From: Kondoa subrosea
Lineage: Eukaryota
Length of the DNA stretch: 64,000 nucleotides
Assembly (NCBI GenBank): GCA_039545335.1
Contig: BCIN01000001.1
Coordinates: forward strand, 1-64,000
Direction of reading: 5' to 3'
Shown: positions 47,844 through 56,551 of the stretch, piece by piece
How the letters are laid out: each line of letters begins with the position of its first letter
How positions within the stretch are numbered: the stretch's first letter is position 1
Translations under genes and position numbers: made by a program
Notes under the pieces: generated by a model
What the model saw: the letters and a program-made list of their open reading frames with translations, nothing else
Told to the model about the DNA's origin: nothing
Database searches by the model: none

Positions 47844-50497
47844 ATGGAGGAAGAGGACGAGCAAGTCTATTCCTCGAGAATCAGGCGCAGACGACCTGGT
47901 AGAACTCAAGCTACTGGATCAACAATTACTCCACGCGATACTCAGACTGGAATTGCCGTTACAGCTCGAAAGCGTTTAGATGATGTTTTCGATTTCAATG
48001 AACCTCTTACACCTTTGAGCACTTCTGGATCCGACTCTCGCTCTACATCTGACGATGGTGAAGAAGAGGCTTTTTCGCTCTCTCGTTCGCCTTTATCTCC
48101 AATTCTGCCTGCAAATCAATCTCCAGCTAAACGTCGACGCAAGTCTTTTCCAGCCCGAGCAGATTTTGAGGCCGATGTAGATGATGTAGGAGTAGTAGAA
48201 CTGAATCAGCGTTTGCTTTCTTCGCGTAAGAAACCACGATGGCGCATCAAACCTTCGACTTCGGACGAAGAAGATGCTCAGAACTTAGCAGCGGATCAAG
48301 CACCACAAGTAGCGACGTCACCAGCGTATGATCTTCGTTCTCACAAAGATGCTTTACCGGATTTATATGCTGTCATGGATGCTTTGCCAGCACATGACGC
48401 AGAAGAGGAGGAAAGCGATGTTCAGCCAGCACAGGCGTCACCACCTTGGAATTTGAGTAAGCTCAGAAAGCGTCATCCTTCACAGCCAGCTGAAGAAGAA
48501 CACAGAACGAAATCAGCTCTTGACTTTGTGCCTTCAAATCATGCGAATGTGCCTTTACATGTACGCCGAGCATTTTGCCATTATATTTGAGACTGATATT
48601 CCGCGTAGCATTCGCGTCTTGATCGGATTGAGCGGGTCAAACCAAGCCATACTACTCGATTCTTGTCTCGCACTCGCCAAACTACTTTCGCCTCAGCTAC
48701 TACATCTCAAGAAGAAGTTCGGCATGCTGCTGCTGGTCATAAGCGGTTGCACGATCTATCACGGGTCCCTTATCTGGCCGTACCGCTAGGTGAAGAGGAA
48801 TTTCCACCTGAAGAAAGCAGCGACAGAAATCGTTTGCCTGCAAAAGTGAACAAGAAAGCGGCTAGAAGAAAGGCTTTTCAAGCTTCGCTTCCAACTGCCC
48901 GCTCTTTCGTTCCTTTACAACTTGTCTCCCCAAACGATCCCGATGTGAATTATCACGCTCGATGCGATCAGCCGATTGAAAGGTACGATACTGCCGAAGG
49001 ACTAAGAAATATCTGATTCTGTATCGACAGAGTTAACAACCGACCTAAGAAGATTCCACGTAAACCGCTTGCGAAAGTAGTCAATCCTCTAAAGCAGGTT
49101 CCAGCAAATCAAGCCAACCGCTTGCACGGTACTAATCCCACTGTGCCTGTGTCGCCATCTGTTCAGCTAGCTCTATCACCACTTCCAATTGCTGTACCAC
49201 TCCTTGACACTCCGCCCAGCGTTCGGCGAGAAAGGTTGGTAGACTCTGTAGAGACTGGCCGAAATAGGATTCTGGTCGAAAACACTCAGATCATGGCAGA
49301 AGAAGAGCTTGAAGCACCGTTGCAAGACGAACATGAGCCTTTTAATCCTTTTGATCAGCATCATGAACCAGAGCCTTCTGATCCACCTTTGCAAGAAGAC
49401 GTATTTATCGAACAACCTGTTTCGAACGCTCGAGCGCCCAGTCTAGCTGACGTACCAGTGACCGATGTTGATATGCGAATTGAAGAATCAGCTCAGGCCG
49501 CTAATTTTCCTGGACTAGAGATGCAGCGCTATTCGCAGTACTATCAACACCTTGCGAGATCGGATGGGCCAGCAGATATTGAGCAGCTTTTCGTCGAGGC
49601 AGAAGAGGAATTCGCTTTACTTGATCCCCATTTGGAAGAGCAATCTGTACCATCCGAAGAAGATGCATTGTCTGGTAGCGAAGAGGAACATACACCTACC
49701 GGCCCTAGTGATCCTTACAACTCTTTGTATCCTCAGATGCAAGAGTCAGAGGTAATCGCCAGATCACCGCCCAGCGCAGTGTTGGAAGAGGAATCAGGTT
49801 ATGAAGCGGATGAAGAGGCGAATCTAACTGTAGACGAGTACTTTGCTCGCTTCGGGACGGAAGATTGTCAGTCGATGAAGTACAGAGCTTGTCACTGATA
49901 TGGCTTGTAGTACCTCCTGCGGGTCAAAGCATCACTTCTGACAAGGCTCCAGCATTTGACCACCAGTCGAGAGTGCCGGAACGAGCAGTGGTCTTCAAAC
50001 AGCGCAAGAAGAGGGTGCTTTTACCTGCGAATAGTATTGTGGAAGAAGAGGAGCCGCAAGAACTGATTGGCAGAGATCTTGTACAGCCAGAGGCAGAGGA
50101 AGAAGCTGGAAATGATTTGATCCAAAATCAAGTGACCATGAAAGGTCTCGCCCAACCAACAAGAGCAGTTCAGCCGCAGCCCTTGACAATGTTTGCCGAT
50201 TCACAATTAGTTCCACATCAGCATCAGCAACAGTTGAACTCTCCTCCAGCTTGCTCTACTTCGGCTCGGACCTATCTTCGCTATCGTCGAATGGATCCCA
50301 AATCTTCTTCGCAGCCAGCTTCTACAGCTTTCTCTTTTCGCGGCGGGTTTCGAGCGGAAGTCGGTCAAAGACAGGTCGATGCAACTATGGCTCGACCTGT
50401 CGCTTTGATTACGGATGAAAGAGGTCAAAGAAAAGCTCGTGTGAGGACCATCACCACGATGCAGCGGCTAGATAGCGCTTTGAAAGGAAGCCGATAA
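47844..50497 (+). CDS. Hypothetical largely disordered acidic/Pro-rich protein with basic NLS-like motifs
   Basis: A chain of long same-strand ORFs joined by short introns. No recognisable domain. Confidence 0.65.
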
Positions 50498-50650: not shown

Positions 50651-53154
50651 ATGGGCAACCTGTATGGCGCTCTCTATGTCCTCAGAGTTCTCTTCAAGCC
50701 TTCCCTGCTGCTGCCACGGCTTGTGATCAAAGGTGTGTACCGAGTTGGATGACATAGGTCAAGCTGAGCGATTTCAAGATATCCGAGATTTGGACTTTCA
50801 ATGCTTGAAAGCTAAAGGCATCACTGGTCTTGTGTTCGCTTCTTTTTCATCTCTGTCCCTTTCCTTCATTTTTATGTTCCACTTTGCATAGATTCGACAA
50901 GGACAATTGTCTGGTTTGTCGATCGCAACACGAGTTTTGTCTAAGCTGAACTTACTGAAAGACGAAACCGCATGCGGATAATCTCCCGTCTGAATTGGAA
51001 GTGAGTTGTATCCCTTGATGCTCTGGACGAATCAGGCTAACATCTAATGATAGGGAGCTTGGTCTCGGATTCTCGCTACTTTCCCTGGATCCGTCCTGAT
51101 TGTCTCGAACTCTGCTGGAACCAGAGACGATGCATGTCTCATAGCTGTAAGCTGGCAAAGCGTGCTATTACAAGGTACCTCATCATAGCTTAGGCAGAAG
51201 CAGTCTCCCGATCTCTGCGCGTCCCGGTATTAGTACACTCGAAGAAGAAACCTGCGTGTGCAGCTGCAGTCATCGATTACTTCTCGAATCCTTCGCTCGA
51301 CTCTTCAAGCGCTGTCTGGCCGGATGTTATACCTATGCGCCGATTCTCTGCTGGCAAGCAAAAAATATTGGTCGTTGGCGATCGATCTATGACTGATACT
51401 GTTCTTGCGAATCGAATACATTCACCACAATTCTCCGCTGTGCCGGTTCTCACAGAGCGACTTTGGGCTGGTGAAGGATTCGGAACTGCAGTAATGCGCT
51501 TTCTGGAAGGCGCTTCACGCCGTCTACTCACCTACTCTTCTCAAAGATGGAACATACCAAAGGCACAGCTAAAGGATGATCTGGACCAATGCCTCATCAA
51601 GCCTTTGCAAACTGCTAACAGGTCAAGAGGTCGGTTAGCTGGATTTCGAGGCATGCTGACCGGCAAACTTCCTATGCTTGGTCGACGTACCATCTGGACT
51701 ACTTCAACAATCTCAAATTCTTCGCCCGAAGCTTTACTTCAAGCAGCAGAAAAACAGCTTTCTTCCTTACGACCGGAGTCCCCTGTCTTCTTTGGACTAT
51801 CCAAGAACATTCCCTCTCAGCAACTTTCTTCCTGCGTACAGCTTCTACAAAACCTGAACTGCAAAGCTGCAGTTGGTGGCTTGACAGATACACCTGCCAA
51901 TAAAGCTTTTGCTCTTTCTTTAGCAATTTGGACACCAGACTCCACTGGAAGGACAATCATTCCCTTCCGTTCTGAAATCAAGGGCAAACCGCGGATATCT
52001 TTGGGTAGAGAAGTCAAGCCAGAAGTTCAGGAAGAGCGAGATTCCCTAGATGGAAGAATCAGCGAAGGGGTCAAAGACTGGTCAGCACTGTTTGGGGCTG
52101 ATTCTATCGCTTCTCGGGCAGAGGAAGAACTCCCGCAAGCGTTGCGAGAAATCAAGTGAGTAATTCATGTTTGTGATCGCGGATCGCCTAACCTATGACT
52201 AGTCCAAGATCAATTGAACGGATCTTGTATTTCTCTGATGATGCTCCAGAAGGCTTGACGAATGTCTTCGATAGAAGATTGCCTTCTGCTTCTATAGTAA
52301 GCTCTTCTCCTTCTGCTTGAAAGGCTGCTGATATTCTCCTAGTTTGGGGTCATCGCTTCTTATACACCCTTTGTGACTGGTCGTCGAATGACTCTATTGA
52401 ATGGAAAGTCAATTTACTCTGATGGCGCAGTCGGTCTAGCTGTAGTCAACGACAATGCGCCATCTTTACCTTCTCAAGCCAAACTCGACTTTCCTGGATG
52501 GTTGACACTAGGAAATCCTTACAAGATAACAAAGTGGGTAGGCTCCTTTCAAACCATGAGCCATGTCTGACAGGAACACTAGCGCTCAAGGGAATATCAT
52601 TCTCACCTTGGCAGATCAACCTGCAGCTAGGGTTCTCCTCGACTTAGCTCAAGGTCATGCAAAGTCGCTGAAGTCATCGCTGAACAAGGAGACGGAGTAC
52701 TATGTTGGGCTTTCGAAAGCAGTATCGCAGGCAAGTTGCACTCACAATGAGCATTGCGTTACTAAGTATATTTTCAGTCCGAACCATGTTCGCCAGAGCA
52801 GGCTATCTCTATCTCTCGCGTAACCTCAGGTGATCCCTCTAGAGGGGCTATGGCAGTAGACACAGAAGATACCTTTTCGAACGGAGATTACCTACAAGTG
52901 AGTCATCTCAAAGCCTTAATCATTGTCTCTGAGCCGTTTTCTACTAGTTCTATGCTCGTGGCGAATCTACAAATGCTGGCGACAGAATTGTTTCCGACAA
53001 AGGCTTAGTCTGCATAACTTCGCCAGGCACTGTCGACAAGAACAGCAATGCTTTCCAAGTTATGTCAGAGAATGGATTCATTGTTAGTCCAGGAGGGAAG
53101 CAGAAGAGCTGGGTCTGTTCGCTTTCTGGTAGTATAACAAGGTATACGCTGTGA
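50651..53154 (+). CDS. GEP4: Mitochondrial PGP phosphatase Gep4 (HAD IIIA) fused in frame to a FIST-like protein
   Basis: Gep4 motifs FDKDNCL|TKPH, VSNSAG, KKP and VGDRSMTD. The ORF continues without a stop into FSDDAPEG, IASYTPFVTGR..SDGAVGLA, GNIILTL..PAARVL, GDPSRG..AVDT and SENGFI. Confidence 0.8.
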
Positions 53155-53185: not shown

Positions 53186-55432
53186 CTACACCCTCTTCTC
53201 AATGACAATGGGACCTAAATACTGTCTGTTACCTTTGTACAACTTCCTCAGCATTGTATCCCCGCTCCTTGTATCGCCATTCCTTAGAAAATACTTGTGG
53301 GCCAAAGCGTAAGCTGGTTCGACTCTTGTCATCCAGTCTTGTCTATTTTTAGGTTCTGCCATCTTGTTGATCAATTCCCACATCCCTGCACTACCTAGTT
53401 GACCATATCGTAACAACGCTTCATAGTAGATAATGGCTGTGACAGGATGATCCAAATCCATTTCAGAACGAAGTATGGCGAGTCGAAACTTCCTCAAACT
53501 CCTCCAGCTCAAGCTAGCAGTCTTCAAGTAATGCCTGAGGAGGATGTTAGTCAGATCAATTCTGTCTTCAGGATGCTTCTCGATCAATTGACGAATGATA
53601 CTGAATCGGCGGTGTCTTGCGAGATTCCGAGCATAAGCGCGAAGAGTGAGAGGATGGTAGGGTTGATTCCGCATCAAAATGATAGCTTCATGAGCTGATA
53701 TTCCCAAAAGCTTTTCGACGACATATTCAGGTGAGGGATTGTCCACCGAAGATGTAGTAGTGAATCGCGCTTTTGATATTAAGACTTGCTCTTGCATCCA
53801 TTCTGTCTGCATGTCTTTGGGAAAAGAATGAATGTACCTCATATAGGGTTCGTCTAGCTTTTGCAAAGATAGAAGACAGGATTCTAGAAGAACAGAATTG
53901 AGAAGATGGGCCGCATAGCTAGCCAAGTCATTCAAAAGGTCGGCCTTGACTCTTTCTTGCATTTCGGAGAGTTCCAGCGATCGTAAAATTGCTCGACTGG
54001 ATTCCGCTATGTGGATCGAAGGAAAAGAGGGATGCTTCAGGGGATGCAATGCTTGCTCAAATTTGCCACGAGCCGCCAAGATTGCGGCAAGACTTGGAAG
54101 CAAGAGAGGTAAGAACTTGGAAGGGATCTTCTTCGTCGTCGGCGCTTTCATTTGGAGAAGCAATGTTTCAAGGGCGCCAAGAAGCAGAGGAGACATGTCT
54201 TCAGGTAGATCTTGCTCAGCGAGAAAGTTGAACCGAGCTTCTGCCTTGCTCGAGGATAAGTGTCGCTTTCCGTGAATGACCGTTTCAGCGATTACTAGGT
54301 TCGGAGTCAGAGCGTCGGCTTTCAGTGTGTTGCGGAACAAATCTTCTAGTACTTCATTTGTATTCTGCAAGAGAGATGCTGTGAAAATTTGGGCTGGAGT
54401 ACTTGCGGCTTGTGGGTAGAGAAAACCAGTTTGTAGTTCCTCCGTTGCAAAAGCAATACAATCAGCCATTGCTACTTCATTGTGCTCGCGGTTCAAATTC
54501 CGGAGAAAGGTGAAGAGCCAAGGCATATTGATCTTCTTCATCAGTTTCCAAACTACCTTTCGCGCAGATTCCAGACGGAGAAGGTCTTCTAGGTCGTGTG
54601 GATCCAGATCTTGCAGCACAGTACTTGCTCTAAGGTGATCTTGCGCGTATAATAGACCGCTAAGTATATGCAACCTTTCAATTTGACCGCATTGACATTT
54701 GCATGCCTGGTAGACTTGCAAAGCTTTAGCGGTGTTATTCTTTGCTGATTCTTTCAATGATTCGGGAAGCAGAAAGATTCTGATTAGCAGCTTGAAGATT
54801 TCCTTCTCTTTTGTCTGGCAGACGCCATCGGCATATAGCTCGAGCAGAAGAATTTGCGCTTCTTCATAGGCTGCCTGATACTCGCTGGCCTCCATAGGCG
54901 GCGTTTTACGGTACTTGAAGAAGGTGTCGATGGATTTGGACAAAGAAGGAAGAACAGTAAGAAGATATTGAGTGTCGGCAGTTGAAGGGATTTGTAATTT
55001 GGCTGCGAGAATGTCTTGAGTTGCGCTGTACAATGCGTCAAGATGATCTGATAGCCTTTCAGGGAGACTTTGAGAAGCAGAAGAAAAGGGAAGAAGAGCT
55101 GTCTCCAGCTTGGATACAGCTGCCGACAATCTGACTGGAACTGAATCTGACCAAGATTGCTCTTCTTCAGAAGATACCGCAACCTCGGAGATGTCTGCTT
55201 GTATTGGAGCAGGCTTAGACAGCTCGAGCTTAGTGAAGGCTGCAAGGCATAAATTTTGGTCAATGTCTAATTTGCTGGCAGCTTCTTCAGACCAAGACTT
55301 ACAGACATGCCGCTCGTCCGAGTATCTTCTATGTATCCCAACACCAGTTCCAGCAAGTCTCGAGGCATTCCTAGCCAGTTGCAATGGGCGTCTGCTATTT
55401 TGTGCGACCAATCTGGTGACATGTAGGCGCAT
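53186..55432 (-). CDS. 748-aa intronless Leu-rich helical protein with a mitochondrial presequence (PPR-like, unassigned)
   Basis: Arg-rich, acid-free N-terminus ending RRYS. Helical-repeat-like composition. No catalytic motif seen. Confidence 0.7.
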   Translation of the reverse strand: MRLHVTRLVAQNSRRPLQLARNASRLAGTGVGIHRRYSDERHVCKSWSEEAASKLDIDQNLCLAAFTKLELSKPAPIQADISEVAVSSEEEQSWSDSVPVRLSAAVSKLETALLPFSSASQSLPERLSDHLDALYSATQDILAAKLQIPSTADTQYLLTVLPSLSKSIDTFFKYRKTPPMEASEYQAAYEEAQILLLELYADGVCQTKEKEIFKLLIRIFLLPESLKESAKNNTAKALQVYQACKCQCGQIERLHILSGLLYAQDHLRASTVLQDLDPHDLEDLLRLESARKVVWKLMKKINMPWLFTFLRNLNREHNEVAMADCIAFATEELQTGFLYPQAASTPAQIFTASLLQNTNEVLEDLFRNTLKADALTPNLVIAETVIHGKRHLSSSKAEARFNFLAEQDLPEDMSPLLLGALETLLLQMKAPTTKKIPSKFLPLLLPSLAAILAARGKFEQALHPLKHPSFPSIHIAESSRAILRSLELSEMQERVKADLLNDLASYAAHLLNSVLLESCLLSLQKLDEPYMRYIHSFPKDMQTEWMQEQVLISKARFTTTSSVDNPSPEYVVEKLLGISAHEAIILMRNQPYHPLTLRAYARNLARHRRFSIIRQLIEKHPEDRIDLTNILLRHYLKTASLSWRSLRKFRLAILRSEMDLDHPVTAIIYYEALLRYGQLGSAGMWELINKMAEPKNRQDWMTRVEPAYALAHKYFLRNGDTRSGDTMLRKLYKGNRQYLGPIVIEKRV

Positions 55433-55579: not shown

Positions 55580-56551
55580 ATGCTATCAGCGCCTGTCAAC
55601 GGTCATCGAGCATCGACTTTCAACAAACAAGACGCTTCTGCTGTTTACAATCTCGCTGCAGCCAATTCTCCCTTGAGTCTACAAATCCGTCATGCGCTCA
55701 AGGTGATTGATGACACTTTGGATCGATACACGTGCGCTGTCTTTGTCAAGTGTTGCACAAGTATCGTTCTCATACTTCTATCATTGACAGGAATGATGAA
55801 GTGGCAGTCTCGTTCAATGGCGGCAAAGACTGTACTGTTCTCTTGCACCTAATATGTGCCGCACTCTACCATCGTTCTGCCTCTTCTTCATCTTCTTCAT
55901 CTTCTTCTGTTCCTACACTCAATGCAATCTACGTACGCTGCGATTCTCCATTTCCTCAAGTAGAAGAATTCATTGAACTCTCTTGCGCTTACTATAATTT
56001 ATCTTTACATACCATCACATCAGATATGCGATCCGCTCTAACGACTTATCAATCAAAACTACAACCGAAAGTGAAAGCTGTCATAGTGGGAACAAGGCGG
56101 AATGATCCTCATGGCGCAGATTTAGGTGATATGAATCGAACGGATGTGGAAAAGGGTTGGCCGGATCTGATGCGCGTTCATCCTATTCTGAATTGGGGCT
56201 ATAACACTGTATGGGATTTCCTTCGAGCGGAAGAATTGGGTCGGAATGGTTCGAAAGGGATCCCGTATTGCAATTTGTATGATTATGGGTGAGTCATCTC
56301 TTTGTCTTTTTACTACATTGTCTCAGCTAGGGAACAGATACACATCACTCGGCTCTACACACAATACCTTTCCTAATCCAACATTACGCTCATCAAATCA
56401 TATTTCGCAGTATAAACCAGCTTACATGCTAGAAGATGAATCTTTAGAACGGGCAGGCAGAGAAGGAGCAAGTACAAGTGGTATCGTTATTAGAGAAGAG
56501 AATGGTGTAGAAGAAAGGATTCCGACATCACCTAGTAATGCTTCGTTGTAA
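55580..56551 (+). CDS. FAD1: FAD synthetase (PAPS reductase family)
   Basis: VSFNGGKDCTVLLHL, VGTRRNDPHG, GWPDLMRVHPILNW, YCNLYDYG|YTSLGSTHNTFPNP, ERAGR. Confidence 0.92.

Follow-up and report, generated by a model that had tools for sequence, protein, structure and literature searches.

We describe a gene in which a Gep4-type phosphatidylglycerophosphate (PGP) phosphatase runs in frame into a FIST-fold protein, located in Kondoa subrosea on contig BCIN01000001.1 (GenBank assembly GCA_039545335.1), of which positions 1 to 64,000 of the forward strand make up the window analyzed here. The Gep4-FIST fusion is confirmed at the DNA level, and we lean toward the view that its predicted 670-residue product is a tandem precursor, cut by MPP, the mitochondrial processing peptidase, at R262-T263/I264. 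Specifically, i) the open frame joining the two halves is kept in five database proteins from three clusters, down to about 30% identity, and is therefore more than a chance opening; and ii) the Arg two residues ahead of the predicted cut (R-2) is present in all six fused sequences, despite a linker only 9 to 10 of 27 residues identical between P0001, the exon-6 fusion frame of the Kondoa subrosea locus, and its relatives P0002 to P0005 (P0101 being the sixth). No description of a Gep4-FIST pair was found in the literature searched (mostly titles and the beginnings of abstracts, with few subscription papers), and we regard Gep4-FIST as a conserved, apparently undescribed fusion of an already known type, with cleavage likely.

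The fused gene and its relatives

The source genome (18.9 Mb, 27 contigs) is compact and rich in introns. In our gene model, built by hand from the DNA and with an intron-exon structure predicted from sequence, the fused gene runs on the + strand from ATG 50651 to a stop at 53154, with 11 exons encoding 670 amino acids; the 10 modelled introns are 46 to 58 nt each, and all have a G at donor position +5. In its coding frame the fusion exon has 0 stops; the remaining two + frames contain 10 and 8. The features are:

50651..50732 (+): exon 1; Gep4 start Met and conserved beginning of the Gep4 domain
50779-50833, 50892-50913, 50962-51000 and 51054-51146 (+): exons 2-5; haloacid dehalogenase (HAD) motif I LVFDKD and motif II SNSAG
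51194..52155 (+): exon 6, the fusion exon; Gep4 C-terminal part, linker, and the first 154 residues of the FIST protein
51491..51546 (+): cryptic intron candidate of 56 nt, which would end Gep4 at 206 amino acids; judged unlikely
51587..51691 (+): linker; 35 residues, no D/E, 8 K/R; putative Gep4 tail stump plus FIST presequence
51653..51655 (+): internal in-frame ATG (M251), 13 residues ahead of the predicted cut; possible nested start
51686..51697 (+): predicted MPP site R262-T263/I264-W265 (R-2), with the conserved Arg; the first strand begins there
51692..53154 (+): FIST-fold protein, residues 264-670; remainder of exon 6 plus exons 7-11
52203-52296, 52343-52533, 52583-52730, 52778-52897 and 52948-53154 (+): exons 7-11; FIST half

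Both halves of the model align over their full length with stand-alone orthologues: residues 3-234 with Cystobasidium minutum Gep4 (46% identity, E 4e-63), and residues 261-670 with a Mixia FIST-domain protein (33% identity, E 1e-47). The N-terminal half is, judged by its Pfam match and HAD motifs including DxD, a Gep4-type PGP phosphatase: PF09419 exceeds its cut-off at 51191-51421 (35.4 bits against 20.4, in one exon) with a further match at 51054-51134, and LVFDKD is intact at residues 45-50, its codons divided by intron 2. The hhhDxD signature is the catalytic motif of Gep4/PgpP (PMC11804483, which like PMC13640660, PMC8847149, PMC8734313 and PMC5063612 is cited here from excerpts).

The second half is a FIST-fold protein by homology, with the fold itself seen in the AlphaFold model of the Mixia orthologue (pLDDT 85.5). 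Neither the unspliced genome nor individual exons gave a Pfam match to FIST (PF08495/PF10442); among 15 full-length homologues, 10 exceed the PF08495 cut-off, 2 fall below it, and 3 have no match. The original prediction had called the C-terminal half FIST-type, which the FIST-annotated homologues and the Mixia model bear out, and had also called it a sensor. A NosP-type sensor would be expected to have a heme-ligating His and a partner kinase. No shared His was seen, and the only His-rich column (11 of 16 rows, in an alignment without NosP) is Ala in the Kondoa subrosea protein; the sensor label is not supported. The bacterial FIST proteins NosP and CdpA bind NO (nitric oxide) or heme (PMC8846402).

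A word search with the exon-6 frame gave 2 fused proteins among 2116 candidates (98% and 85% coverage, about 60% identity), and their clusters contained 2 more; these four, P0002 to P0005, share the same open frame and are 60 to 63% identical to P0001. A profile search of 1.84 billion representatives returned 92 matches, both halves being spanned by P0003 only. The fifth, P0101, came from a cluster look-up; in it, a linker of greater length connects Gep4 C-terminal motifs to the N-terminal part of FIST. It is 28% identical to P0001 and 28 to 34% identical to the other fused sequences, and the other two members of its cluster were called from later starts. All five relatives were called as genes from genomic contigs and are not transcripts. 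As predicted, the Gep4 frame of Kondoa subrosea enters a second protein without a stop, and it does so in the five relatives as well.

Whether orthologues are fused or separate, a question the original prediction had posed, receives a mixed answer. When 102 sequences were scored with profiles built from unfused matches only, 28 proved to be Gep4-only, 66 FIST-only, 7 both (two being the Kondoa subrosea locus), and 1 neither; many FIST-only rows are metagenomic calls without visible upstream DNA, and some may hide fusions. No Gep4 match lies upstream of the one stand-alone FIST locus (L005-L007) read as DNA, and the top three Atlas FIST clusters (58, 102, and 73 members) have no PF09419 share. 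The nearest named homologues come from Cystobasidium, Mixia, Puccinia, Rhodotorula, Rhodosporidiobolus, Sporobolomyces, and a Cyphobasidiales metagenome-assembled genome, on which basis we would place the source genome in Pucciniomycotina. Queried with PF09419, with Gep4 of Cystobasidium, and with the FIST protein of Mixia, the Kondoa subrosea genome gave the fused locus alone for each family, counts that are lower bounds.

Without a stop of its own, Gep4 would be made as a fusion chain unless RNA processing intervenes. The original prediction had the frame free of both stops and introns through the linker; the first part is observed, and the second we infer from the sequence. An unmodelled splice or an early poly(A) site that ended Gep4 and left FIST separate, so that the fusion was rarely or never translated, strikes us as very improbable. 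Of 27 GT/GC..AG pairs of 40 to 110 nt beginning in 51480-51700, one is well shaped: the 56-nt GT..AG candidate at 51491-51546, which has a pyrimidine tract. Its donor, however, lacks the +5 G found in 10 of 10 modelled introns; splicing it out would delete an R-x-x-E motif shared without exception by 10 Gep4 homologues; and the donor falls in a Val codon where the relatives have Ser or Phe. Nor do the GT dinucleotides at 51622-51634 have an AG within 40 to 75 nt downstream, the linker is 50% AT as against 67% past the real stop, and three lineages would be keeping a stop-free, in-frame linker without reason.

Several observations concern the locus more generally. The FIST-half intron 52731-52777 is GC-AG, with an otherwise consensus-like donor. 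The stop at 53154 is separated by 31 nt from the stop of a convergent − strand gene (748-amino acid open reading frame [ORF], 53186-55432), and the two 3′ untranslated regions therefore probably overlap. Upstream, a + strand stop at 50497 leaves a gap of 153 nt to the fused gene; downstream, a + strand gene at 55580-56551 of the window belongs to the PAPS (3′-phosphoadenosine 5′-phosphosulfate) reductase family (PF01507, E 2e-10) and is probably a FAD (flavin adenine dinucleotide) synthetase.

The linker and the predicted cleavage site

The Arg-rich, acid-free linker of the original prediction is where it was said to be, 35 residues free of D/E, and lies within a 47-residue D/E-free run (residues 229-275), the longest in the 670-residue model. 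On a home-made scale of presequence-likeness, the linker provides the highest-scoring 25-mer of the model (4.7, the runner-up 1.2), and it has no predicted secondary structure over most of its length. A presequence-like stretch and an MPP R-2 motif are thus both present at the junction. In the fused sequences the acid-free run before the site is 35 residues, or 50 in P0101. The predicted motif R-x/I-x-x-T is present as R-T/I-W-T-T, with codons at 51686 (R262), 51689 (T263), and 51692 (I264), and so is the internal Met at 51653. Around the conserved Arg the six fused sequences read R-T/I-W, R-S/I-W (four), and R-T/L-F, and the residues beside it vary (T/S at −1; R/T/S/K at −3); P0001 matches P0002 to P0005 at 38 to 41 of 54 residues in the Gep4 core and at 48 to 52 of 86 at the start of FIST.

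Stand-alone FIST proteins carry a comparable leader. After alignment of 59 stand-alone-type proteins on an invariant Thr, 41 have a leader of at least 10 residues and 18 one of 3 residues or fewer. The 41 leaders have a median length of 23 residues, contain 22% K/R and 1% D/E, and follow the motif R-x/[ILVY]W, with Arg at −2 in 35 and Trp at +2 in 36. The presence of a mitochondrial-type leader on most FIST proteins of Pucciniomycotina points to an unstudied mitochondrial protein family. The 18 leaderless homologues, among them P0066, P0071, P0075, P0078, P0079, P0081, P0083, P0085, P0087, P0092, and P0094-P0096, start at the mature N-terminus and belong mostly to one tree branch; they are either a non-mitochondrial subgroup or calls with missed first exons.

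The site also coincides with the edge of a fold. In the Mixia model, residues 1-14 are unstructured and the first strand (15-24) begins at the counterpart of I264; the AlphaFold model of exon 6 (pLDDT 62.7) has no secondary structure from 114 to 146, followed by a strand at 147-154. Because the R-2 site meets the start of the predicted strand, it marks a fold boundary. The end of the linker, judged by these comparisons, is the ancestral presequence of the FIST protein, and M251 is probably the former FIST start codon.

The front of the linker, by the same kind of comparison, is a remnant of the Gep4 tail. In 21 Gep4-only proteins with a correctly located [WL]xxC motif, 43 to 138 residues follow the motif (about 100 in most), as against 33 to 34 in the fused sequences and 63 in P0101. 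Basidiomycete Gep4 proteins such as P0013 extend beyond the Pfam domain in a tail that is long and basic, with about 100 C-terminal residues past WxxC. A weak Gep4-tail match at another locus (L011, G000:C4:128556-131840; − strand ORF 1168-1833) is that ORF's own leader region, and the ORF itself we take by eye to resemble the mitochondrial genome-maintenance protein Mgm101. Nothing on Gep4 processing appears in the excerpt of preprint PMC13640660.

The tails bear on a further reading, in which the only product is an uncut two-domain protein, one chain on the inner membrane, with the linker a relic or an uncleaved targeting signal. The likeness of the basic linker to the basic tails of stand-alone Gep4 and the absence of a strong N-terminal presequence would both fit, but the −2 Arg is held constant among varying neighbors and, as the leaderless FIST homologues indicate, is dispensable for the fold; we consider an exclusively uncut protein improbable.

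The original prediction had MPP followed by Oct1. The Oct1 substrate motif, R-x/[FLI]-x-x-[STG], is matched at the junction and in 8 of 41 stand-alone leaders. Oct1 takes off eight residues after MPP (the R-10 rule; PMC8847149), and the octapeptide here overlaps the first predicted strand of both models (147-154 in P0001, 15-24 in Mixia). An Oct1 cut would strip 7 of 8 first-strand residues, and leaderless homologues begin at the MPP position. Since the first β-strand would be lost, the Oct1 step is unlikely; the MPP part of the claim is supported by the conserved Arg and the fold boundary.

Precursor cleavage or a nested start

Considerations of several kinds weigh against cleavage of a tandem precursor. 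First, a cleavable presequence is not apparent at the Gep4 N-terminus: the first 27 residues contain 4 K/R and no D/E and have a moment of 0.53, but score −0.9 and constitute a conserved Gep4-domain start (N4 and G7 are invariant in 10 Gep4 homologues). An in-frame TGA lies immediately 5′ of ATG 50651, and no upstream leader can therefore be added. Second, Gep4-only tails score at least 4.7 in 10 of 26 cases, as high as the linker, so that being rich in Arg and poor in acidic residues is not by itself diagnostic, and in the five relatives the 25 residues ahead of the site reach only 1.4 to 3.8, compared with an in-sample stand-alone median of 5.9. Third, the junction mismatches the strict Atp25 consensus [R][AFR][FLY]/[AKLS][HSTQ]. 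Finally, a Met at −12 or −13 is present in all six fused sequences, and a nested start would explain the conserved site equally well.

The last point makes the nested start a live rival, possible though in our judgment doubtful. The long form would stay an uncut chimera, free FIST would come from a short transcript starting at ATG 51653 with a 13-residue presequence, and the R-2 site would be conserved for the short form. The Met is at −13 in P0001 and P0101 and at −12 in P0002 to P0005, in linkers otherwise unalignable; with Met frequencies of 1.2 to 1.4%, we estimate the chance of such a match in the distant lineage at about 3 to 8%. Leaders of 11 to 14 residues occur in 4 of 41 stand-alone proteins, and a nested start would account for the missing N-terminal presequence. 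On the other hand, 13 residues is short against the stand-alone median, the last 13 residues are only weakly amphipathic in P0002 to P0005 (moment 0.22 to 0.27, median 0.58), and the acid-free stretch reaches at least 22 residues upstream of the Met. Thirteen ATGs lie between the two starts, which puts leaky scanning out of consideration and requires a promoter inside a coding exon, where the composition is unremarkable (50% AT). An R-2 site exposed in the matrix could, moreover, be cut in the long form anyway.

We would reconstruct the tandem precursor along the following lines. A deletion would have joined GEP4 to a neighboring FIST-domain gene; it would have taken out some 60 residues at the Gep4 tail, the Gep4 stop, and the intergenic region but spared the FIST presequence. 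A single mRNA, presumed from the observed and conserved open frame, would yield the 670-residue precursor, and M16 peptidase genes are present in the genome. MPP cleavage, with no Oct1 step after it, would release a 263-residue Gep4 PGP phosphatase, whose basic 33-residue stump would take the place of the basic tail that stand-alone Gep4 has, and a 407-residue FIST-fold protein sharing its N-terminus with the stand-alone orthologues. Nothing requires the two products to act together, and an additional short transcript from ATG 51653 may exist.

A more specific version of this scheme we put forward only tentatively: the lead protein would lack a cleavable presequence, the internal FIST presequence would drive or assist import, MPP would cut without the N-terminal loading step that Arg5,6 needs, the presequence would afterwards remain on Gep4 as its basic membrane tail, and a free FIST isoform might arise from the old start codon. 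If so, Gep4-FIST would depart, in nature, from the rule published for internal cutting by MPP, and it would tie an unstudied mitochondrial FIST protein to cardiolipin synthesis; should a nested start or an uncut form be the right reading, it would be an ordinary lineage-specific fusion.

Comparison with known systems

Each half has close counterparts. The Gep4 half shares the hhhDxD, SNSAG, KKP, and GDR motifs with Gep4/PgpP (YqeG) of PF09419, but unlike stand-alone Gep4 its basic tail is shortened to 33 residues and runs on into FIST. The FIST orthologues (PF08495) of Mixia osmundae, Puccinia coronata, and Rhodotorula diobovata are stand-alone, as in every named fungus seen. Basidiomycete FIST proteins correspond structurally to the FIST part of human FBXO22 (PDB 8s7d, 8s7e, 8ua3, 8ua6) but, unlike FBXO22, these proteins have no F-box.

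Few tandem precursors cut by MPP have been described. The Gep4-FIST fusion either arose twice or has persisted while its sequence diverged by about 70%. Each half can be compared with stand-alone orthologues, and the fusion lets one test directly whether MPP depends on an N-terminal presequence for cutting internally. A presequence-like stretch and an MPP motif at the junction characterize Arg5,6, Atp25, Rsm22-Cox11, and others, with S. pombe Rsm22-Cox11, Etp1, and SPAC22A12.08c named alongside Arg5,6 (PMC8734313). Gep4-FIST resembles Arg5,6 in that a presequence-like stretch lies internally and the junction carries an R-2 motif. Arg5,6 of S. cerevisiae, however, depends for its internal cut on a strong N-terminal presequence (PMC8734313), and combines two enzymes of one pathway throughout the fungi, whereas Gep4-FIST is lineage-restricted and its halves share no known pathway.

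The closest parallel is S. cerevisiae Atp25 (Rsf plus M domain), in which unrelated mitochondrial proteins are likewise in tandem, linked by the presequence of the second, and the junction has an MPP site (PMC5063612). Atp25 consists of two full precursors in tandem, and in-frame fusion of two precursor genes is named as one route to such an arrangement; it has a cleavable N-terminal mitochondrial targeting sequence and two internal cuts, and its cleavage has been demonstrated (PMC5063612). Gep4-FIST differs in having as its lead protein a lipid phosphatase without an evident presequence, a single predicted site, no ribosomal partner, and a retained internal Met.
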